Virus genome (UHGV): UHGV-0059692
Length of the DNA stretch: 22,155 nucleotides
Source: a virus
Reading direction: 5' to 3' (one strand)
In this document: positions 1 through 15,083 of the stretch, piece by piece
How the letters are laid out: every line of letters starts with the position of its first letter
How positions within the stretch are numbered: the first letter of the stretch is position 1
The notes under the pieces: model-generated
The model's database searches: none
Told to the model about the DNA's origin: nothing
The model's input: the letters and a program-made list of their open reading frames with translations, nothing else
Position numbers and translations under genes: made by a program

Positions 1-156
<156 letters not shown>

Positions 157-526
157 TTATTTTGTAGTCTAGCCTTCTGGCCCTGTTACGCAACATCTCA
201 TCACCCCATTACCCTGAAATGATTAATAAAATTCTGTCTAAATTGAATACAAAAAGCAAAATGCTTTTCCGTATACAAACCGTGTGAAGTGTTAAATAGC
301 GTCTATCATTATCAGAATTATCTGATCATATGACGTGGCTTTTTTGCGATCGGATAGCAACAAAAATTGATAAAAATAATGGGATCTCAATGATTACACA
401 CAACTTCAATACCCTGGACTTACTCACCAGTCCTGTCTGGAATGATTAGCGCAACGAATAATCATTTATGAAACAGAATGTTATGTTGTTTTTGATTTTG
501 GTTTTTGATATTTGGTCACTATTTGG

Positions 527-560
527 TACACAAAAAGAAACGAGGCGTTAGCCTCGTTTC
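527..560 (-). terminator. Rho-independent terminator ending the tail-fibre transcription unit
   Basis: 10-bp stem gaaacgaggc (537-546) / gcctcgtttc (551-560) with loop gtta; on the minus strand it is followed by TTTTTGTGT. No T-run on the plus strand, so unidirectional. Confidence 0.6.
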
Positions 561-603
561 GCGGCGATGTCTTTAACATCACCATGCTGTTACTATTGCA
601 CCA

Positions 604-870
604 TCAAGCCCACGCGCGGACGCCGGGATCTGGAATGATGAATTTTTCCAGCGGCGACAAATCAACATCGTCACCAGTAATGCGCATGTTGACGTAATAG
701 CCTTTTTTCTCAATCAGTACAGGCGTGTCGCTTTCTGGATCATCGAATACAAGAACAAAACCAATGTCATTAATAAACACGGTTTGCTGATTGGTGTCCA
801 GCCAGCCGCTGTTAATCACGATGTCGTTGTATTGCTGTTTATCAGTAAATTGCAAGCTAACGTCTTTCAT
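604..870 (-). CDS. Hypothetical small protein (88 aa) immediately downstream of tail fibre
   Basis: ATG at 870-868 preceded by AAGGTGG; the track's longer ORF starts at a TTG inside the tail-fibre stop region. Starts 10 nt after the tail-fibre stop (TAA 883-881). Family not recognised. Confidence 0.55.
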   Translation of the reverse strand: MKDVSLQFTDKQQYNDIVINSGWLDTNQQTVFINDIGFVLVFDDPESDTPVLIEKKGYYVNMRITGDDVDLSPLEKFIIPDPGVRAWA

Positions 871-880
871 GTTAACCACC

Positions 881-2668
881 TTAAACAATTTCGCTTAATT
901 GAGAATCAGTTAATGCTTTGTGCCAAATACGAAAATTTCTGATATGTCCGAACAAGTGGCGCGTTCCATCGGATGTCTGACCACCAAAGCGGATGTTTTT
1001 GTCCTGTGTCACACCACCGTAGATACAAGTCGCATCACTAGCAGGTGCACCGTTCATGATCACATGGAATGTTCCATCGCCTTTAACCACCGCGCCAATA
1101 GTGGCGTTATCAGTTAACTTAACACCAGCGGCAGAATTGATGTAAGCACCGTCGCTTTTGGATAGAGACATGTAATACTGACCGCTACCACGGTTAACCG
1201 CAGCGATAACTGACTGCCCATTCTTAGCGTTGGCAATATCCCAAACACGCGGCGCGGAGTTAGGCGCTCTGAACCAGTCCTTGTGAAGTTCGAGCAGGAA
1301 ACTGAACGGAGGACGCGCAAGGTTGTTTTTAGTCGTAATACTTACCATATCGCTCGCACGGGTAGAAGGAGTTGAACCTGAGCTAATATACGATGATGCA
1401 TTCGTACCAAGTTCGACTTGAGGAGTTGCCAGTTCCATGTAGTCGCCGGACACGAACGCGCTAACCGGAGCAAACTGAATTTGCGCGGTAACCAGCGTTA
1501 CGGTTGATTTATACGTCACCACTGCGCGATTCCATCCGGTGATGCTGTCCGTTGTTACGCTAACAGTGAGTTTGTCTGCATCGCCGCCTGTCTTCGTTAC
1601 AGACATGTCGCTTAGTTTGATATACGCATCACACAGGAATGCCAGACTGGAAGTGTCTTCACCACCAGCAAAACGGATACGCAACCGGACGTCGTTTGAC
1701 GAACGAAAACGACAAGAAGCGGTGACGTACTGTTCATCGTGCTGAGTAGTGTCGATAACGTTAGCAGTGATCACTGACGCCATGTTGCAACCACCAGTGC
1801 CGCCAACTGCACTGTCGTCGATCACGAATTTTCCGTACAGGAAACCGTAGCTGTCAGTTTCTGCTGTAGCGGTGACATTAGTTGATCGGCCCCAATTTGC
1901 AGGGACGCTACCGTTGATAAGGAAGTTTGTGCGAGCACCTTCGATTAATAATCCTTCGCGTTCGAAACGTGGCTCGTTAATATCAGCTACGGTTAAAACT
2001 CCTGATTTGTTAATGTAAGTAGCTGTACTTGCGCGGGAGAAAGAAACAACCTTATCTGATGATATTGTTTTTTCTTCACCATCAATGGTTACTTTTTTCG
2101 TGCCTGAGCCGTAGCCAGTGATTATATCCAGAGAATCGTTAAACGGTATCCATACGTCCGGCAGCGGCTGCAAAACATACGCGTAAGGCTGTGCCGTCTG
2201 ATTGGCGTATTCGTGGGCCTCGTCTCTGTATGTCTTAGCTGAATCGGCGGCGGTTGTCGCTGTTGTTGCCGCGTTGGTTGCAGTGGTAGCTGATTCTGAT
2301 GCTAATTTCGAGGCTGAAATAACATCTTTGTTGTCGCTAAAAAATTCAACGGCGTCAGCTATTTCTGATTCTTTGCCCTGATAGTAACGCAGTGTTTCGG
2401 CAACATCCTGAGCAAGGCCATCCACAGAGATCGAATCTGAAAGCAGGATGCTATATTTAGTTCCAGCCGGAATTGCCGGGCTTGCCGCCGGAGTTACTGA
2501 CAAACTTGTCGCGCTTTTTACCTCTGTGATTGAGAAAATCTGCACCGGATTGCTAATGGCAATAAGGGTGCAACCCACTCTAATCATAGATAATGCGGCA
2601 TTGAATTCAGTGCCAGCTCCAGTAACTGTTTTTCCGCTAACGGCTATCGTGCCTGTTGTGTAAATCAT
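881..2668 (-). CDS. Tail fibre protein with probable C-terminal concanavalin/LamG-like lectin domain
   Basis: 595 aa; Thr/Ala/Ser-rich N-terminal region (ATTATNAATTATTAADSAK); C-terminal segment HLFGHIRNFRIWHKALTDSQLSEIV resembles the conserved end of LamG-type jelly-roll domains in phage fibre proteins; GGAG 8 nt upstream of the ATG. Confidence 0.8.
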   Translation of the reverse strand: MIYTTGTIAVSGKTVTGAGTEFNAALSMIRVGCTLIAISNPVQIFSITEVKSATSLSVTPAASPAIPAGTKYSILLSDSISVDGLAQDVAETLRYYQGKESEIADAVEFFSDNKDVISASKLASESATTATNAATTATTAADSAKTYRDEAHEYANQTAQPYAYVLQPLPDVWIPFNDSLDIITGYGSGTKKVTIDGEEKTISSDKVVSFSRASTATYINKSGVLTVADINEPRFEREGLLIEGARTNFLINGSVPANWGRSTNVTATAETDSYGFLYGKFVIDDSAVGGTGGCNMASVITANVIDTTQHDEQYVTASCRFRSSNDVRLRIRFAGGEDTSSLAFLCDAYIKLSDMSVTKTGGDADKLTVSVTTDSITGWNRAVVTYKSTVTLVTAQIQFAPVSAFVSGDYMELATPQVELGTNASSYISSGSTPSTRASDMVSITTKNNLARPPFSFLLELHKDWFRAPNSAPRVWDIANAKNGQSVIAAVNRGSGQYYMSLSKSDGAYINSAAGVKLTDNATIGAVVKGDGTFHVIMNGAPASDATCIYGGVTQDKNIRFGGQTSDGTRHLFGHIRNFRIWHKALTDSQLSEIV

Positions 2669-2865
2669 TGCAATGACTCCATTGTGTTAATTAACGGAAT
2701 AATTCTACCATTTTGTAATCCGCGTTACACTTTGAGCTTATACATAATGTATTTTTTGATCTATATCAACATACGAAATGATAGCTTCTGCGGTGATTTG
2801 CTCATCGGATGGGTGGATCATCACGAACAACAAATGACAGTAAAACAAACAGTAAGGTGAATACA

Positions 2866-3126
2866 ATGAAAAAACTAATTGTTGCTTGCATCTTATCGGC
2901 TCTGTCTTTTGGTGCTTTTGCTTCTGTAAATTCGACAGATAAGAGTGATGCTGGCACTGCTCAATATGGTGATACTAGCCTTGATAACCAACGTTCGAGT
3001 TATTTCAATACTGACTCATGGAAAGAAAAACAACTACAAGGTAAAATTATTGACAGTGAATGTAATTTACCTATCCATTTTTCTGGTGTAAATGATGGGT
3101 GTGAAAAAAATAAAAACAATGCATAA
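2866..3126 (+). CDS. Small secreted protein (86 aa precursor) with two cysteines; moron between J and tail fibre
   Basis: ATG at 2866 preceded by AAGGTG (2854-2859); N-terminus MKKLIVACILSALSFGAFA looks like a Sec signal peptide; opposite strand to all neighbours; AT-rich. Confidence 0.6.
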   Translation: MKKLIVACILSALSFGAFASVNSTDKSDAGTAQYGDTSLDNQRSSYFNTDSWKEKQLQGKIIDSECNLPIHFSGVNDGCEKNKNNA

Positions 3127-3154
3127 AAAAACGGGGCTTATGCCCCGTTTTTTT
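3124..3154. terminator. Bidirectional rho-independent terminator shared by the 2866-3126 gene and J
   Basis: Perfect hairpin cggggc-ttat-gccccg (3132-3147) flanked by an A-run (3124-3131) and a T-run (3148-3154); the stop codons of both convergent genes sit in the flanking runs. Confidence 0.7.
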
Positions 3155-6100
3155 ATGCTGTCGTTGATGTGCTAAATGATCCGGTGCCTCTTGCTACTAT
3201 CATTGTTGGAGAATACAACGCGGTACAATATGCGTATCCTTCAGATGATGATGTTTGAGGACAATATATTTTCCCGATAATATCTGATGCTTTTAAATCA
3301 GAAAAAGCGCATTGCACTGTTAATGTGCATCCACCATAAGGTACGTAATATGAAATTGTTTTGTTTTTACCTCCGCAACTAAACGTTACGTTATAAGTGG
3401 ATCTATATTCACCAGACATTAATGAAATAGTCGCCATAAGCATAACTGATTTCGTCAATGCATTATCCGTGCTGTCTTTATATGTGATGGTTGCGCTATA
3501 ACTTCCGTTATGCCCAAGTACTCGATCTGGACCAACCCCCATGTTAGCAACGTCACCGATAAATGACTTTGCCTCTACTGTACCTTTAAACTTCCCGCTT
3601 GTGGCCTGAATCTCACCAGTGAATTTACCAGATGTTGCGTACACCGTACCGCGTACAGTGACGTTGTTGAACTCCGCATTGCCGTTTTTATTTAGCATCC
3701 AGCCAGCAGAACCAGCTTTATAGTTGGTTGATTGAATTTGCTGCGCAATCTTCGCGGTAGTGATTGATGCGTCTCTGATCCACGCATCACGGATGTAGCA
3801 AGCACCGTTAGTAACATAGAACGGGGTCTGATAGGAGCCACCTGCCGCAGTCATAAGCACGAAACGGTCAACGAGGAAAATACACTGCGATTGAACGTTA
3901 GTCCCGCTACCAGTAAGGCCGAGCGACATTCCTGTAGCGTATTTCATGCCGTTTTTATCAGTGGCAATCTTAATTGAATATGACGCATCAACGTTACCTT
4001 TGAAGTCAGTCAGTGCTTTTGATGTCGTTTCTATCGCCGTTGTGTTTCCGTTAATAGTTACTTTCAACTGGTCGATTCTGGTTGACAATGCCTCGTCTGC
4101 CGTTGCCATAGCCCGCGACCATTCCGTGATGCTTGAGTTTACATCGTCGAAAGATGCCGATATTTGGACAAATTTTTCAGCACTTGATGCCTCGTGAGTT
4201 GCGAGCGCCGTTGATATATCTGTTATTTTTGCTGAAATGTTTTCATTAATATTGGCTTCAAGTGATGATATAGCCTCCGCGCGGGCCTGGGTTTCGTCCG
4301 CTATTGCTGTGTCGATCCTTGCTATTTCCGCTTTTGTTTTTATCTGGCCTTTCCTGTACTTCGCCTCAATAACAGTGCTCGCCTTGCTTTGCGCTATTGA
4401 GTTGTTGATAAGTGCAAGCGAGGCGTTTTGCAGACTTGCTTTCGCCTGATCTATTTCGTCGTTGTTTTTATCAACCTTATTTTCAACAAGACCAAGCTCC
4501 GCACTGATACCTGATATTGCCTGAGCGCGCGCGCTTGATTCGTCAGCGATAGCTTGATCCAGGCGGCTAACACTGGCATTTGTGTTATTTTCAAGCGTTG
4601 TTAAATCAGCTTTAACCTCTGTTATTGCATCGCTTCTTGCCTGCGTTTCATCTGATATTGCTTTATCGAGACGAGAAACGCTCGCATTAGTTTTGTTTTC
4701 CAGGCTGCTGATACTGGCGTTAACGTTGCTTATAGCCTCTGTTCTCGCCTGTGTTTCTGTTGCTATCGCTTTGTCTACGCGTGCTATTTCACCTTTGGTG
4801 TTTGAGTCCATCGCGCTTATTTCGGCTGTGATGGTTTCCAGTGATTCCGCTGTCGATTTTTTCTCCTCTGCGATAACGTTGTCGATGCGGTCAATCTGTG
4901 CCTTTGTTTCGTTGCGGCCTTTCTTATATTGAGCGGTAAGAGTAACCCGCGTGTTAGTTTGAGCAAGCGAGTTGTTGATCAGAGCAAGCGAAGCGTTTTG
5001 TAGACTTGCTTTTGTCTGTGCCAGTTCGTTATTAACGTTTTCGTTTGATACCTCTAATGAGTCTATTCTTACCTCATGTTTGCCTATTTCGTCGGCGTTT
5101 TCTTCGACTTTTTTATAAAGGGCTTCGGTGTCTTTTTTAAGTGTATCTGTATCAGCTTTAAGGCCATCTGTAGCTGTTTTAAGGTCGGCGGTTGCTGTTT
5201 TAAGGTCGGCGGTTGCGCTTTCTATAATATCAGTGCGATCACCAAGATCCTTAATATCACTTACCATTCCCTTAAATTGTTCTGAATTCATCACGTCTTT
5301 GGTGACGTAATCGCTAATTTCATCAAAATTTTCTGTCGGCTTACCTGATGCTTCCACAAAGTCAGACACGCCAAAAGCGTTACGCGTGCGCACATAAACG
5401 TAATAAGTATGGCCTGTATTCATGCCGCCAAACGTCCACTGATACCCGCGCCCGGTAAACTGCGCAGACGTGGTTATTTTTGCAGGATCCGTAATCTGGT
5501 TTTCCCCTGCATAGTAGAATTCATACGCTGTATCAGTTGTTAGCGTTGTCTTGCTTATCGGGTACACTGTAGCCTGAAATACACCTGGAACCCAGTTAAC
5601 GCCTATTGGCGAGTCGGGCGCACCGATAACAAGATCTACTATGCTTTCTGCACCCTTCATGCCAGTGTCATTTCTTCCGCGAACGCCTAACGAATACGCG
5701 CCAGCGTCGATGCCATAAAAATCATAACTGTATTTCGTTGTTTCGTAGCTTTTAACAACCGCACCATCGGCGTTATATATGCGGATCTCAAAGGTCATGC
5801 GATGCGTTGTTGTCTGTGTTTCCCATGTAGCGCGGCATTGAACCGTCTCTGACGCAATGTTTATGACTTTCAGGTTTTCGATGTTCGGAACACGGAAATG
5901 ATTAAGCGTGTCATTGTTGATTTCAAATATTGCTCCCTCATCAACTACCGCTTGTTTGTTCGGGTCATGTTGCGCTGCTTCGATGGTATACACGCTATTA
6001 TTTTCGGTTTCGGCTACACTGGTGATCCGACACAAAACTGGTTTTGCGGATTCAGTGGATACAGCAAAAACAGTGCCGTTGCGAATCCATGCCGGGGCCG

Positions 6101-8957: not shown

Positions 8958-9662
8958 TTAACCTACCTTGCTGGAACCAGGGAAGCAGGAGATAGGCAGT
9001 GCTGCAGGACGCGGGAAACGTAAACGACAACCGCTAAGTCGGTGACTGCATTTGTCTAACGTTGGATTACTTGTCGGTACATCTTTATCCGTTGCGACCG
9101 GGCCGCCAGAATACATGCACCCGTCACCTCTGTATTGCCACTGGCAAACGTCTGCGAGGATGGTGCGCCCAGGAATGACGGCCTTGTCTGCATCAATTGG
9201 CGTTGACAGTTCATACTGAACCTGATCCGCCGTTTCTTCGCTCATGGACTCCACGACGTAAAAAGACACAGCTTCAATAGATGGATCTGCGTCGGGGTTT
9301 CCGTTAGGGAAGTTAACGGCGTCAAGATATTTCACCTCCACCTGGCGGCGCGTAACCTTCATTCCTCTAAGGTCGTTAAAATCGTTGTTCATCCCCGTAA
9401 TGAGTCCGCCGATATTGGCTACAACCATTTGAGGCCGCGAATAAACACCCTCATTTTTCATTTCGAAGCCCGTCGCCTCGATCGGGTAGCTGTTGTAAGC
9501 TACTCCCTTCCAGATAACCTGGCCGTAATAGCCGTTCGCGCCGGAATGGAAGCGGATAACCTCGCCTCCCAGGGGAGTAAGGTCCAGTTCAAATAAGTCA
9601 ATGACCGCGCCAACTCCGGCATCGACGGAATCAATAATCATCTCTCTCGGAATATTGCGCAT
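8958..9662 (-). CDS. L: Minor tail protein L (lambda gpL-like)
   Basis: 234 aa; YLDAVNFPNGNPDADP and the Cys-rich C-terminus (DKCSHRLSGCRLRF) match recalled lambda gpL (FLDAVNFVNGNSYADP, DKCSKCLSGCKFRN); AAGGTGAG upstream. Confidence 0.9.
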   Translation of the reverse strand: MRNIPREMIIDSVDAGVGAVIDLFELDLTPLGGEVIRFHSGANGYYGQVIWKGVAYNSYPIEATGFEMKNEGVYSRPQMVVANIGGLITGMNNDFNDLRGMKVTRRQVEVKYLDAVNFPNGNPDADPSIEAVSFYVVESMSEETADQVQYELSTPIDADKAVIPGRTILADVCQWQYRGDGCMYSGGPVATDKDVPTSNPTLDKCSHRLSGCRLRFPRPAALPISCFPGSSKVG

Positions 9663-9716
9663 TTTCTCACCTTGTCATTTTGTGATCTGCGTCACGCTAA
9701 ATCATACCAAAATGGA

Positions 9717-9745
9717 TTGATCGTGGTTTTTACAATATGTATATT
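9717..9745 (+). promoter_or_regulatory. Putative sigma70 promoter for the plus-strand cassette
   Basis: TTGATC (9717-9722), 17-bp spacer, TATATT (9740-9745), in the divergent intergenic region between L and the cassette. By eye only. Confidence 0.35.
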
Positions 9746-9791
9746 TTACTCAAACGAAGGGGAAGTTAACAAAATGGCGCGGAGATGCGTT

Positions 9792-9980
9792 ATGACTGAA
9801 AAGCTATGGAAGTTGACGGTATTCATGACAGACGGTAGGGAAAAGGTTATCGCCATGTATGACGACGAGGGGGAAGCATTGGTTGACGCGCTTTTACTTG
9901 CTGAGGATGACCGCCTTTTGGGATACCAGATCGAACCTGTCAAATATGAGGCTAACAAAAATGAAAAAATACAGTCTTGA
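9792..9980 (+). CDS. Small acidic protein (62 aa), cassette gene A
   Basis: ATG 9792 with GGAG 7 nt upstream (alternative ATG at 9774); Asp/Glu-rich; its N-terminal half is paralogous to the N-terminus of gene B. Confidence 0.55.
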   Translation: MTEKLWKLTVFMTDGREKVIAMYDDEGEALVDALLLAEDDRLLGYQIEPVKYEANKNEKIQS

Positions 9981-10308
9981 TGTGTGGTTAAGTGGTAGCA
10001 AGGAGTGTTTCGGATTATTTGATAGCGAAGAAGTAGCCCTGGAAGAAGGCAGGATTCTTGAATGTAGTTTAGGCCATCCAGTGAAATATGCTGCTAATCC
10101 GGTACAGATAGTTGATGAGGTGGAAGATATGAACCCGAAAGATATTAATGTTAACTTCAATGTTAATTTTGCAGACTCTATGGATCAGTCTTGCCCTGGT
10201 GAAATACACGCAAAAGGTTTCCCGGCTGATGATCCTGATGCAAAACGCGAATACGAAAAAGCGGCAAAAGATTTCTGTATCGACAACCTGGGCGCGTTCA
10301 ATAAATAA
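9961..10308 (+). CDS. Acidic protein (115 aa) with four cysteines, cassette gene B
   Basis: ATG 9961 preceded by GAGG; overlaps gene A by 20 nt in another frame; N-terminal module resembles gene A; no family recognised. Confidence 0.6.
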   Translation: MKKYSLDVWLSGSKECFGLFDSEEVALEEGRILECSLGHPVKYAANPVQIVDEVEDMNPKDINVNFNVNFADSMDQSCPGEIHAKGFPADDPDAKREYEKAAKDFCIDNLGAFNK

Positions 10309-10317
10309 GGCGGCAAT

Positions 10318-10566
10318 ATGGCGCGGCGCAATAACGGTGACTATGTGTACACGTTGAAACAGGCCGCCCGCCTTATCGGTTATCATGAGCACGAATTTAT
10401 TGATTTGCTGATTGAGCGCGGGATTTTATACCAGGTCTGCTTAACGCTGTACCCGAAAGCAAAATACCTACAGGAAAAGCTATTCATTATCATGACGGAT
10501 GAAAATCAGGTTAATCATTCATTCGTCACTGATAAGGGCGTTAATTATCTGCGTGATAACCTATAG
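10318..10566 (+). CDS. Small DNA-binding-like protein (82 aa) resembling the ANT/KilAC antirepressor C-terminal domain, cassette gene C
   Basis: YTLKQAARLIGYHEHEFIDLLIERGILYQ followed by YPKAKYLQEKLF and VTDKGVNYL, the pattern I recall for KilA-C/ANT domains; starts 10 nt after gene B. Confidence 0.55.
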   Translation: MARRNNGDYVYTLKQAARLIGYHEHEFIDLLIERGILYQVCLTLYPKAKYLQEKLFIIMTDENQVNHSFVTDKGVNYLRDNL

Positions 10567-10576
10567 GTGACAGATT

Positions 10577-10693
10577 ATGAAAATAGAAGTTTTGGCACTA
10601 ATCGTGATGGGATTTATAGTATTCGGTGTTCATGCTGTAGATCTGGACTGGAAAACGATAGCAGAAAATATAGCGTTAATGGAAATGGAATAA
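10577..10693 (+). CDS. 38-aa hydrophobic peptide, cassette gene D
   Basis: Not in the ORF track (too short). ATG 10577 with AGGTGA 6 nt upstream; MKIEVLALIVMGFIVFGVHAVDLDWKTIAENIALMEME has one hydrophobic helix then an acidic tail; terminator follows directly. Confidence 0.45.
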   Translation: MKIEVLALIVMGFIVFGVHAVDLDWKTIAENIALMEME

Positions 10694-10698
10694 TAATA

Positions 10699-10725
10699 AC
10701 CCCGCTTCGCGCGGGGTCGTTTTTA
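10699..10725. terminator. Intrinsic terminator ending the plus-strand cassette; possibly also active on the minus strand
   Basis: Stem accccgc (10699-10705) / gcggggt (10711-10717), then T-run 10720-10724; the reverse complement is followed by TTATTATTATT. Confidence 0.65.
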
Positions 10726-10908
10726 TACGCCATCAAGTAAGAATAAAACTTCCTTGCCTTCCCTTGATCTGCATCCAACATAACCGTCGCCAACATCATG
10801 AAGATACCAGGTCTCACCATTATCAGCTTTTACAGTAAGGTCGTTTATTTCGTAGTCGTCAAACAATGTAAAAGCTCCAGTGCGGTCCACTACACAAATA
10901 GCATACAT
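10723..10908 (-). CDS. Hypothetical small protein (61 aa) translationally coupled to M
   Basis: ATG 10908 preceded by GGAGGGG 5 nt upstream, directly after the M stop codon; no lambda counterpart at this position. Confidence 0.5.
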   Translation of the reverse strand: MYAICVVDRTGAFTLFDDYEINDLTVKADNGETWYLHDVGDGYVGCRSREGKEVLFLLDGV

Positions 10909-10920
10909 ATTGCCCCTCCA

Positions 10921-11274
10921 TTAATTGACAACTTGTTCAAACGTTGCATTCAGCGTGCATACCGGGCCGTCTTTCGTCATGCTCCATTTTCGGCATACAA
11001 AAAGCCTTTGCACTCCGTCCGTTGATGGCGTCCAGTAAAACGCCTCGACCGCGCAACGTGCTCTTAAAAATGCGTCAACCTGGAGAGCCACGTTTCCGGC
11101 GTCACCATATCCGGCGCTCGTACCTTTAAAGACCAGTGTGTAGCTATCGAGCAAAGGATTGATCCCTTTAACCTGCCTTTGCTCGTAGTTGTCGCCCAGC
11201 TTAATGACAGACACGTTAGGCTCGCTGTTTACGCTATAGCTTCTTTGCGGTTTCCATCGGAATACTTCCGGCAT
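10921..11274 (-). CDS. M: Minor tail protein M (lambda gpM-like)
   Basis: 117 aa; N-terminal FRWKPQ and C-terminal ATFEQVVN match recalled lambda gpM (FRWKVKP, EFEQVVN). Confidence 0.9.
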   Translation of the reverse strand: MPEVFRWKPQRSYSVNSEPNVSVIKLGDNYEQRQVKGINPLLDSYTLVFKGTSAGYGDAGNVALQVDAFLRARCAVEAFYWTPSTDGVQRLFVCRKWSMTKDGPVCTLNATFEQVVN

Positions 11275-11441: not shown

Positions 11442-11696
11442 ATGAAACTGGTAGCGATTGACAAAAACCTGAAAGCACAGAAAAACGCACCTGAGCATGT
11501 AATCAAAAAAGCAAAAGATCTTCTGAGCGCGTTTTTAAGAAAGGATGTAGCGCCCAAAAAATTGAAAGACGGATACGGCTACGCCTTCCGCGCCAACCTT
11601 GATTGGCGAGTATACAGCCAGGATCTGAAAGCGTGGGTAATCGTTGAACATCATAAATTTAATGAATTATCTGGCGTGCGCGGTTGCCATAAGTGA
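11442..11696 (+). CDS. Hypothetical lysine-rich protein (84 aa); speculative RelE/ParE-like toxin fold
   Basis: ATG 11442 with AAGGGGGA upstream; opposite strand to flanking H and M; C-terminal pattern YAFRANLDWRVYSQDLKAWVIVEHHK loosely recalls RelE/ParE-family beta-strand motifs. Confidence 0.5.
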   Translation: MKLVAIDKNLKAQKNAPEHVIKKAKDLLSAFLRKDVAPKKLKDGYGYAFRANLDWRVYSQDLKAWVIVEHHKFNELSGVRGCHK

Positions 11697-11704
11697 GGCG
11701 GGAT

Positions 11705-11797
11705 ATGGAGGACGATAAATTCACCTGGCGTGAGATCTGGAACATCTGGCAAGTAATGTTTGCTCGCAGCTACATAGCAAGAAACGGAAGATTGTAA
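11705..11797 (+). CDS. Possible 30-aa Trp-rich mini-ORF
   Basis: Not in the ORF track. ATG 11705 with GAGG 5 nt upstream, overlapping the stop of the 84-aa gene; MEDDKFTWREIWNIWQVMFARSYIARNGRL. May be chance. Confidence 0.2.
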   Translation: MEDDKFTWREIWNIWQVMFARSYIARNGRL

Positions 11798-11815
11798 TTT
11801 GCGGAGGAAAATAAA

Positions 11816-11992
11816 ATGAAAGTCACTGCAAATAAAAGCAACGTCAAACGCATGGCCTGGATCGTAAAATGGATGGACACGAAAGGCGATACATACACAG
11901 AACCGTTTTTTAGATATACTGACGCAGTGTTCGCTAAAAGCGTAAGAGGCTGGAAAATTGAAAGAGGATATACAAGTTTTGAGAATGAATAA
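11816..11992 (+). CDS. Hypothetical small protein (58 aa)
   Basis: Not in the ORF track. ATG 11816 with GGAGGA 8 nt upstream; followed immediately by a terminator hairpin; MKVTANKSNVKRMAWIVKWMDTKGDTYTEPFFRYTDAVFAKSVRGWKIERGYTSFENE. Confidence 0.45.
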   Translation: MKVTANKSNVKRMAWIVKWMDTKGDTYTEPFFRYTDAVFAKSVRGWKIERGYTSFENE

Positions 11993-11997
11993 AAGAT

Positions 11998-12031
11998 AAC
12001 CCCGGCATTGTTCCGGGGTTTTGTTTATTTG
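11998..12031. terminator. Intrinsic terminator for the plus-strand small ORFs, overlapping the tape-measure stop codon
   Basis: Stem aaccccgg (11998-12005) / ccggggtt (12013-12020), loop cattgtt, then ttttgtttattt on the plus strand; a weaker U-tract on the minus strand. Confidence 0.6.
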
Positions 12032-14367: not shown

Positions 14368-14518
14368 GATTTAACCTCATGCAAAATGTGATCTATGTAT
14401 CTATTTTATACAAAATGTCTTTATTTTAACGATACCGTTTTGTATAGATGATGTAGAGAAAGATAGAAGAGATGCAGGAAGGCCGGATGTCCCGGAGGAA
14501 GTGAAAGAGGATAAGAAA

Positions 14519-14602
14519 ATGAGAAACGTAAACTACCGCCCCAACGAATATGAACGCTATGCGAACCTTATCGAAGAAATGTTAAAAACACTTAAAAAAT
14601 AA
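14519..14602 (+). CDS. Possible 27-aa mini-ORF upstream of the secreted-protein gene
   Basis: Not in the ORF track. ATG 14519 with AGAGGA 7 nt upstream; MRNVNYRPNEYERYANLIEEMLKTLKK; AT-rich leader region. Could be chance. Confidence 0.25.
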   Translation: MRNVNYRPNEYERYANLIEEMLKTLKK

Positions 14603-14669
14603 ACAATATGCGTGTATAACTAAGTTAAAGGAAGCATTTAGCAAATCAGAATAATTACAGGGGTTGATT

Positions 14670-15083
14670 ATGAAACGGTTAGCAAAAATGGTGCTTGCTG
14701 TGATTGCTGCACTAGCATTTAACGCTAACGCTAACGAGGCCATAAACATTAACTGTGAAGAAGTGGCAAACCATGTAGCCGCATATCACGACATGATCAA
14801 AAAAGAACCAGCCGCACCCACAATTCTTTTTAAGGCAATTGATAAAAATTTTGAAGGTAAACCAGTTTATGCTCGTTGGTTTAATTATGGCCTTGTAAAC
14901 GAGGCTGCTGTAGGCGTAGTCTTTGAAAACAACAGCGAAATAAAAAACAGGATAGCTAACGAGTGTAAAGCAAATAAAGTTGCTTTCGCTGAAAGAATTT
15001 TTAATGAAGGCGGCGCTGGTGCAAAAAATCACGCAATTGTCGATTTAGGTAACGGTTTTATTGATATTGTTAGAATCAAATAA
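14670..15083 (+). CDS. Secreted or periplasmic protein (137-aa precursor) with Sec-type signal peptide; moron between chaperone and tape measure
   Basis: ATG 14670 (the track starts at a TTG at 14664); MKRLAKMVLAVIAALAFNANA signal-like N-terminus; two cysteines in the mature part; opposite strand to the tail operon. Confidence 0.65.
   Translation: MKRLAKMVLAVIAALAFNANANEAININCEEVANHVAAYHDMIKKEPAAPTILFKAIDKNFEGKPVYARWFNYGLVNEAAVGVVFENNSEIKNRIANECKANKVAFAERIFNEGGAGAKNHAIVDLGNGFIDIVRIK

Follow-up and report, generated by a model that had tools for sequence, protein, structure and literature searches.

A conserved four-gene antisense operon at the junction of tail genes M and L in mEp021-like coliphages

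What is a compact set of genes on the opposite strand doing in the middle of a phage tail operon? This question is raised by UHGV-0059692, a stretch of viral DNA of 22,155 nucleotides (nt; the whole stretch is referred to here as the window), which is the minus-strand tail module of a prophage and contains four islands of plus-strand genes. One of these islands, henceforth the cassette (9717-10725, plus strand), consists of a promoter, four close-packed genes and a hairpin terminator, and it separates two genes of the late operon, the tail tip gene L (8958-9662, minus strand; PF05100, E-value 3.7e-69) and the tail gene M (10921-11274, minus strand; PF05939, E-value 2.1e-28). An original prediction, made from the sequence without database searches, had described a self-contained transcription unit at this site, and the four genes with their predicted promoter and terminator, antisense to the late operon, are indeed present in the sequence; the interpretation offered with that prediction is supported in part. 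Our analysis describes the cassette as an autonomous accessory operon of the moron type that occupies a fixed hotspot at the M-L junction and interrupts the opposite-strand, Q-dependent late operon, and we tentatively read it as an exclusion or defence operon that would be expressed from the prophage.

A fixed accessory operon between M and L

Gene A (9792-9980, plus strand) encodes an acidic protein of 62 amino acids (aa; isoelectric point (pI) 4.43) that falls into family phrog_29559 of the PHROGs database (E-value 3.6e-46). It overlaps by 20 nt with gene B (9961-10308, plus strand), whose product is likewise acidic (115 aa, pI 4.45; phrog_38567) and ends in a conserved module of 59 aa, here called Bc, that begins at Met57 (10129-10308, plus strand). 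Gene C (10318-10566, plus strand) encodes an 82-aa protein that comprises a KilAC/ANT domain only (PF03374), with a predicted beta-strand and helix-turn-helix (HTH), and is a candidate regulator of the operon, and gene D (10577-10693, plus strand) encodes a 38-aa peptide with a single hydrophobic segment and an acidic tail (grand average of hydropathy (GRAVY) 1.08). Two acidic proteins and a 38-aa hydrophobic peptide had been predicted, and both parts of that description hold. The start proposed for A, near 9774, is less likely than 9792, which is preceded by a ribosome-binding site (GGAG, 9781-9784). Overlooked at that stage was gene E (10723-10908), which is placed between the cassette and M on the minus, or late, strand and encodes another acidic protein (61 aa, pI 4.2; phrog_3249, E-value 1.5e-21), giving a gap with five accessory genes.

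A scan recovered the anticipated sigma-70-type promoter, TTGATC-17-TATATT (9717-9745, plus strand; 9/12 matches; inferred transcription start site (TSS) ~9752). It is conserved in 41 distinct upstream sequences, in which the -10 hexamer is invariant, the -35 hexamer is nearly invariant and the leader is conserved as far as AACAAAATGGC and allele-specific past that point. At the far end, the expected hairpin proved to be a bidirectional intrinsic terminator (10699-10725) with a stem at 10699-10717 and a T-run on the plus strand (-18.9 kcal/mol, z -3.1), which folds on the minus strand too and is conserved in relatives. The cassette has a GC content of 0.40-0.44, with the flanks at ~0.50, and a GC skew of reversed sign. 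A promoter-like sequence inside D (TTGGCA-17-TATAGT, 10592-10620) was dropped from consideration because it is not conserved in relatives.

Over nine divergent loci, the ratio of nonsynonymous to synonymous substitution rates (dN/dS) is 0.23 for A, 0.24 for B, 0.08 for C, 0.21 for D and 0.09 for E, with L and M at 0.04-0.06 for comparison; all four cassette genes are under purifying selection. The L protein of relatives shares 93-100% aa identity. Minus-strand open reading frames (ORFs) within the cassette were considered as true late genes and rejected, since they are broken by stops or frameshifts in relatives. A search of Rfam with the window returned no match.

The region is 80-88% identical to mEp013, mEp021, mEp515, mEp554, mEp010, mEp044 and MagusPhagus, has prophage matches in 35 of 5426 complete Escherichia coli genomes and is found as identical copies in E. 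coli assemblies. These sequence matches place the window in a prophage of the coliphage family called mEp021-like (mEpimmI), a group proposed in 2025 as a new family that is common in human gut E. coli (PMC11893012). The same paper does not discuss the cassette genes. Their mEp021 counterparts are gp74-gp70, which are annotated as hypothetical proteins or 'putative antirepressor' (MH706966) and are not marked as virion proteins in that record, which was annotated after mass spectrometry.

We surveyed the locus from two anchors, B and M, which yielded 57 and 41 mEpimmI-type loci, respectively; IMG/VR supplied 44 of the B-anchored loci, and the others were drawn from E. coli genomes, metagenome assemblies and phage records. 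The gene order L-[A or A2, B, (X72), C, (D3), D or D2]-E-M, whose variant genes are described below, is found in 57/57 B-anchored and 40/41 M-anchored loci (97/98), meaning that the cassette is a fixed feature of the whole phage family instead of the one-off insertion originally envisaged. The single exception is a 53.9-kb phage contig (L098, IMGVR_UViG_3300045988_076424, locus 3848-3980) with an M-L gap of 131 bp, which is without A, B, C, D, the terminator and E and has kept the promoter and leader up to GTTAACAAAAT, abutting the M stop codon. Judging from this contig, the cassette genes are dispensable. In a sister lineage (L109-L147, M 62-70% identical), the M-L gap is either 43-45 bp, as in lambda, or 335-737 bp. 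The larger gaps mostly hold paired small genes that are unrelated and have no assigned function, one on the tail strand right after M, from a family beginning MTLEQRVEALE, and one convergent on the opposite strand (phrog_35718, 6806, 21164, 10490 and 36400). Because the contents of the gap vary in this lineage, we conclude that the M-L junction is a general hotspot for accessory genes, often in sense/antisense pairs.

Cassette proteins and their occurrence outside the lineage

An alignment of 33 homologues divides B into a variable N-terminal domain (N-domain, residues 1-50), a linker with two alleles and the conserved Bc, in which C78 and C106 are invariant and Met57 and H83 nearly so. The dN/dS ratio of the N-domain is 0.62 versus 0.10 for the C-terminal domain. 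In an AlphaFold2 model, residues 1-50 reach a predicted local distance difference test (pLDDT) score of ~90 and the C-terminus is of low confidence; the N-domain has a predicted beta-beta-alpha-beta topology, and its fold resembles small phage proteins of the DUF7336 type. Protein A is weakly similar to the B N-domain (BLASTP E-value 1e-4; hhalign E-value 7e-4, probability 27%), and on this sequence similarity the two are probably related. There are at least three sequence types of A, plus an unrelated replacement, A2. Alleles of A and of the B N-domain recombine freely among relatives in a mosaic fashion. Co-variation between them was looked for and rejected as an explanation, since such free reassortment gives no sign of specific pairing. 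At A2-bearing loci, the start of the B N-domain is lost or frameshifted, Bc is an intact ORF in 2/2 loci examined (L015, where the N-domain is frameshifted, and L016), and C and the D slot are kept in 3/3. The B family is tiny, with 58 clusters that all stem from E. coli or gut samples, and an exhaustive profile search gave just 12 hits among 1.84 billion representatives, indicating that B is without distant annotated relatives. Some loci carry an optional gene, X72, of 77-79 aa between B and C (L001 at 3823-4056, which is mEp021 gp72, as well as L014, L022, L043 and L048), for which no family match was found.

C matches PF03374 with 30.1 bits against a cut-off of 25.3 (E-value 6.5e-7). Its original description as an antirepressor-like DNA-binding protein therefore stands in so far as the KilAC domain is concerned and fails for the remainder of an antirepressor, as C has no N-terminal partner domain (AntA, Bro-N, Rha or KilA-N) and consists of KilAC alone. 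At the protein level C is the best conserved gene of the cassette, with 89-100% aa identity among loci (95-99% for the five relatives that were examined first), and its synonymous divergence (dS) is 0.36 compared to 0.7-1.1 for neighbouring genes. In the AlphaFold2 model of C (pLDDT 70), an HTH at residues 13-33 comes after a beta-strand, and a Foldseek search against the PDB gave nothing below an E-value of 0.8, with DNA binders of the MerR/RacA/Xis type at the top of the non-significant list. An alternative frame in the 3' end of C (10499-10570, plus strand) holds a 23-aa hydrophobic ORF, MKIRLIIHSSLIRALIICVITYR, that is open in most relatives. The strong conservation of C may be all that keeps this ORF open, or the ORF could contribute to the low synonymous divergence of that gene.

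Peptide D resembles a signal anchor or signal peptide and has a possible signal-peptidase site (VHA/VD). A long form of 45-47 aa occurs in mEp021 and L006, some loci hold an unrelated hydrophobic peptide (D2, 24 aa) in the same slot and some have an extra 23-aa peptide (D3). Homologues of E with 43-51% identity are encoded by virulent T1-like phages, and in Rtp, the sole T1-like phage examined, the homologue lies in the early region and not among the tail genes, which argues that E is an accessory rather than a tail gene. At L004, where E appears frameshifted, NCBI annotates no gene.

The idea that the four genes travel together to other loci was not borne out. The set is confined to this locus in the mEp021-like lineage (98 loci) and only the B(c)-D pair is found elsewhere, which weakens the case for a mobile four-gene system. 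Two contigs related to rV5-like virulent myoviruses (L006 and L007) carry B and D without A, C or E, and a 121-kb rV5-like contig (L061) has a 60-aa gene consisting of Bc only at 3971-4153, followed by D. A 58-kb contig (L063) has a 56-aa Bc-like gene at 5001-5171 among tiny hydrophobic ORFs; Sashavirus BDX09P1 carries a Bc-like short ORF, and L063 shares this gene and its downstream neighbour. Stand-alone Bc genes, among them that at 2777-2941 of L012 (minus strand), span 39-60 aa. Their presence in virulent-type phages suggests either that translation of Bc can begin internally at Met57 (10129) or that B arose by gene fusion. Given that Bc and D occur together outside the lineage and that Bc is intact at A2-bearing loci, the conserved core is Bc plus a membrane peptide, to which C is added in the mEp021-like family.

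Searches of Pfam, PHROGs, NCBIfam and PADLOC assigned no function to the four cassette proteins, the sole domain match being that of C to KilAC, and not one of the five proteins A-E had a PADLOC-DB v2 hit at an E-value <= 1. A, B and D match no toxin or antitoxin family in Pfam, NCBIfam or PADLOC; the ParE-like match mentioned below is that of a neighbouring island. The cassette proteins also have no match to structural or virion families, their PHROG families are without an assigned function, and a sequence search of the PDB produced noise only (HepS, E-value 0.2 with the B profile; E-value 0.29 for C). The cassette is not described in the literature searched and, as had been supposed, the gene combination corresponds to no system described there or in PADLOC, Pfam, NCBIfam or PHROGs.

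Promoter boxes and the neighbouring islands

Two boxes lie in the promoter region of the cassette. Box 1, CATTTTGTGATCTGCGTCACGC (9676-9697, plus strand), contains a site resembling that of the cyclic AMP receptor protein (CRP), TGTGA-N6-TCAC, at 9681-9695, which is its sole occurrence in the window (expected 0.18). Among 41 distinct relatives the half-sites GTGAT and TCAC are invariant and the spacer is variable, the pattern expected for a dimer-binding site with CRP-like specificity. The centre of the site lies ~62-63 bp upstream of the inferred TSS (-62/-63), from which we infer a placement close to the class I position. A near-identical 22-mer of box 1, including the CRP-like site, occurs at 2709-2730 (expected 0.01), and degenerate copies are present in 4/4 divergent intergenic regions of the tail module, 3/4 of which also have box 2. 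Box 2 is a palindrome, TTACAATATGTAT (9730-9748, plus strand), of the family ATACA-W3-TGTAT, which overlaps the -10 hexamer and is a candidate operator. Allowing at most one mismatch, it has three matches in the window, at 2740, 9730 and 14408 (expected 0.17), each upstream of a plus-strand island, and 0/100 shuffles reach three. In mEp021, both boxes lie upstream of gp81 and of the gp74 cassette and only box 2 is found at the tape-measure island, so that box 2 is confined to three equivalent places. The boxes were considered as CI operators and this was rejected because they are absent from the mEp021 immunity region. No LexA box was seen in the cassette promoter when its sequence was read by eye. 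mEp021 encodes a Q-like late regulator, and late transcription therefore presumably runs through the islands head-on.

The other plus-strand islands carry typical lysogen cargo, namely a ParE-like protein and exported proteins. In the slot that corresponds to mEp021 gp81 (2669-3155, plus strand), the window has an 86-aa exported protein that is not a lipoprotein (2866-3126) and a terminator, preceded by the near-copies of box 1 (2709-2730) and box 2 (2740-2752). Plasmid-borne expression of mEp021 gp81, a lipoprotein, led to the exclusion of phages (PMC11893012, section 3.7). The island between M and the tape-measure gene (11442-12020, plus strand) comprises genes for an 84-aa ParE-like protein with a toxin-domain match (11442-11696; PF24732, E-value 4.5e-7), a 34-aa ORF and a 58-aa ORF, and ends in a hairpin that is bidirectional (11998-12020). 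In most relatives the ParE-like gene is preceded by a further gene of 51 aa, which the window does not have, and some (L005, L009) have an HNH endonuclease insertion. The island upstream of the tape-measure gene (14368-15083, plus strand) holds a 27-aa ORF (14519-14602) and the gene for a protein of 137 aa (14670-15083) whose N-terminus is signal-like; in L010 and L011 the island holds a VasI-like 219-aa protein and a 106-aa protein instead. In L010, an otherwise identical prophage, a transposase of the insertion sequence type (DDE_Tnp_1) has inserted near the tail-fibre region (1866-2846). The left end of the window (1-900) probably takes in the prophage boundary, with GC content down to 0.35 at 201-600, and in the identical locus L008 corA lies just past the 88-aa and 595-aa (Laminin_G_3) genes of the tail-fibre region.

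Candidate functions and comparison with known systems

The reading that we favour, with a confidence that falls somewhat short of even, is that of a prophage-expressed exclusion or defence operon with a noncontiguous-operon layout, in which Bc and D form the core, A and the B N-domain provide specificity, C is the regulator and E is a counter-factor. While the prophage is repressed, host RNA polymerase would transcribe the cassette, probably with stimulation by cAMP-CRP and fine control by C, which is the sole predicted DNA-binding protein of the islands and would bind the shared palindrome. Head-on late transcription, antiterminated by Q, would silence the cassette. Its products would act in conflicts between phages, by exclusion or defence, with acidic Bc and the tiny membrane peptide D cooperating at the inner membrane and the fast-evolving A and B N-domains setting specificity. 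E would neutralise the system during the phage's own lytic cycle, in the manner of anti-Tab against Tab, AtiEcA against TaiEcA and Ith against Tha.

Several observations are consistent with this proposal. The gene order is kept family-wide, GC content is low, the skew flips and the promoter region is conserved; boxes 1 and 2 are held in common with the island in the slot of the exclusion lipoprotein gp81; the N-domain of B evolves far faster than Bc (dN/dS 0.62 vs 0.10) and its alleles reassort; E and A-D are lost together in L098, and sister lineages have other sense/antisense pairs. Against these stand a number of points that weaken it. No cassette protein matches a family with an assigned function, there is no significant PADLOC match and BLASTP of A-E against TaiEcA and AtiEcA (phi80 orf63 and orf64) gave no hit with an E-value < 0.01, with Tab and Tha not included in the comparison, so that any membership in that group would be by architecture only. 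The link from C to box 2 is pure inference, and at the other islands the counterparts of box 1 make poor CRP sites. E and the cassette were seen to be lost together once (n=1), which could reflect a single chance deletion, and E appears frameshifted with an intact cassette in L004 (3627-3810) and L009 (10766-10949). L098 keeps the promoter region in spite of having lost its genes, which suggests that the conserved boxes may partly serve gene L on the opposite strand. Finally, the occurrence of B(c) and D in virulent phages without A, C and E fits host takeover or anti-defence at least equally well.

This last point leads to the main rival, a possible but less probable explanation under which the cassette is an anti-defence or host-takeover operon of the anti-CRISPR and anti-CRISPR-associated (acr/aca) type. 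A strong host-type promoter would fire as soon as the DNA enters, A and B would be small inhibitors of immune or other proteins of the host, C would be an Aca-like autorepressor acting on the palindrome, and D and E would be further effectors. The arrangement of variable, reassorting small acidic proteins upstream of a best-conserved, HTH-like gene, with an inverted repeat (box 2) over the promoter -10, reportedly recalls acr/aca operons, and homologues of B(c) and D and of E are found among small non-structural genes of virulent phages (rV5-like, Sasha-like and Rtp). However, the cassette is antisense in the late operon and lies by an exclusion-gene slot with common promoter boxes, a CRP-dependent promoter would be odd for a gene needed at every infection and anti-defence loci do not usually have a conserved slot for a membrane peptide. 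C does not seem to belong to a known Aca family, as KilAC is not known to be among those described. The membrane-peptide slot could alternatively point to a toxin/antidote or abortive-infection module, in which the D-slot peptide is a membrane-damaging, type I-like toxin that is checked by Bc, by B or by antisense late RNA and freed on infection or prophage loss. In keeping with this, the slot always encodes a hydrophobic peptide of 23-47 aa, non-homologous peptides interchange there, Bc has D as its neighbour in two or three phage types that are unrelated, a neighbouring island has a ParE-like toxin domain and A2-bearing loci have a broken B N-domain with Bc, C and D intact. We nonetheless consider a toxin module unlikely, given that there is no homology to toxin or antitoxin families, no conserved promoter for an antisense small RNA and no Rfam hit, that the acidic tail and possible signal-peptidase site of D are unlike typical type I toxins and that the Bc-D pair also occurs in virulent phages.

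The KilAC match of C, which lies above the family cut-off, would also be expected if the cassette were a regulatory antirepressor module, in which C inactivates the repressor of its own or of other prophages, A and B modulate this activity and the CRP-like site and palindrome provide control. Such a module would constitute a second pathway of induction or anti-immunity, like P22 immI or the Gifsy antirepressors. The P22 immI region likewise lies in the late region, and the tightly conserved cassette promoter has a regulated look. C is extremely conserved, as is the repressor of the family, and mEpimmI group repressors share 96% similarity (PMC11893012, section 3.3). We regard this explanation as improbable, because C is without the N-terminal domains of full-length antirepressors and the family repressor has an S24 self-cleavage domain, with which no antirepressor is needed for SOS induction; the promoter has no LexA box, as judged by eye, and B and D in virulent phages and the membrane-peptide slot are left unexplained. 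That the genes encode tail assembly or virion components on the opposite strand is by now very hard to credit and has been largely refuted. Their site between the tail tip genes in nearly all family members is what one would expect of such components, and the original prediction had itself asked whether known virion or assembly proteins were involved. Yet the genes lie on the opposite strand with their own promoter and terminator, are not marked as virion proteins in MH706966 and are all five missing from L098; M and L are adjacent (43-45 bp) in sister lineages, and homologues of B and D and of E are found outside tail modules.

Returning to the exclusion or defence operon, a more far-reaching and rather doubtful version would make the cassette an undescribed prophage immune system with a built-in antidote. 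In this scheme Bc and a membrane peptide of 24-47 aa would be the effector, A and the B N-domain hypervariable, DUF7336-like sensors of rival phages and E the antidote, with C and cAMP-CRP coordinating the four islands through a shared operator and the M-L junction of many siphophages serving as a general docking site for such pairs. Irrespective of function, the mEp021-like tail module is broken by four antisense islands, and in mEp021 one of the slots is taken by a lipoprotein with proven exclusion activity. Of these islands the cassette is the most conserved; it joins a hypervariable domain to a highly conserved one, has a two-gene core in common with virulent phages and has a promoter that seems to be tied to host catabolite control. 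Should the operon act in defence and counter-defence, the noncontiguous-operon principle of Tab, Tai and Tha would reach the tail-tip junction, and the M-L junction would be a hotspot of many unrelated sense/antisense pairs; should its role be anti-defence, inhibitors could be sought with C as a new Aca-like marker.

Among known elements, the archetypal moron is gene 15 of HK97, whose product is made from the prophage and blocks genome injection, resulting in superinfection exclusion (PMC3594210). Several features by which morons are classically recognised are found in the cassette as well, namely a predicted promoter of its own, a factor-independent terminator, deviant base composition and absence in relatives (L098 and sister lineages). 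Like the HK97 moron, it is extra DNA of lower GC content in a tail operon, with its own promoter and terminator and a gene for a small membrane protein. It differs in that it has four genes instead of one and is antisense to the tail genes, and exclusion is known for gp15 only; searches of Pfam and PHROGs gave no link between the cassette and gp15/YebO, and in that sense the two are not similar in sequence. Closer to home, the gp81 lipoprotein (Cor-like) island downstream of J in mEp021 belongs to the same phage family, is also antisense to tail genes and has boxes 1 and 2 upstream, but it encodes other proteins, and exclusion has been demonstrated experimentally for gp81 only. The cassette resembles acr/aca operons in that genes for small, variable acidic proteins precede one for a small and highly conserved HTH protein, the promoter is overlapped by an inverted repeat and the variable genes reassort in mosaic fashion, and it departs from them in its antisense placement, CRP-like site, membrane-peptide slot and KilAC-type C. 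The likeness to KilAC antirepressors and P22 immI is that C reaches the ANT cut-off and that the module is embedded in the late region; in contrast to those systems, C is an 82-aa KilAC domain alone, there are no Arc/Mnt-type partners and the family repressor is of the self-cleaving CI type.

The nearest parallel in layout is to Tab/anti-Tab of JBD26 and TaiEcA/AtiEcA of phi80, where a defence gene expressed from the prophage lies antisense in the late operon beside an antidote gene on the late strand, and to Tha/Ith of 80alpha, which follows the same antisense principle in the cI (lysogeny) operon (PMC10884400, PMC11364771, PMC11087260). As with Tab and TaiEcA, opposite-strand genes with their own promoter break the late operon and have a small neighbour on the late strand, in this case E. 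In the Tab system, too, both parts can go together, as in the atab/tab double deletion there and L098 here. The cassette differs from Tab and Tai in its position, which is the M-L junction as opposed to the terminase or packaging region, and from all three in being a four-gene operon with a candidate KilAC regulator and a membrane peptide. We conclude that the cassette proteins are new families and that an antisense accessory operon within a late operon is a known type of element.

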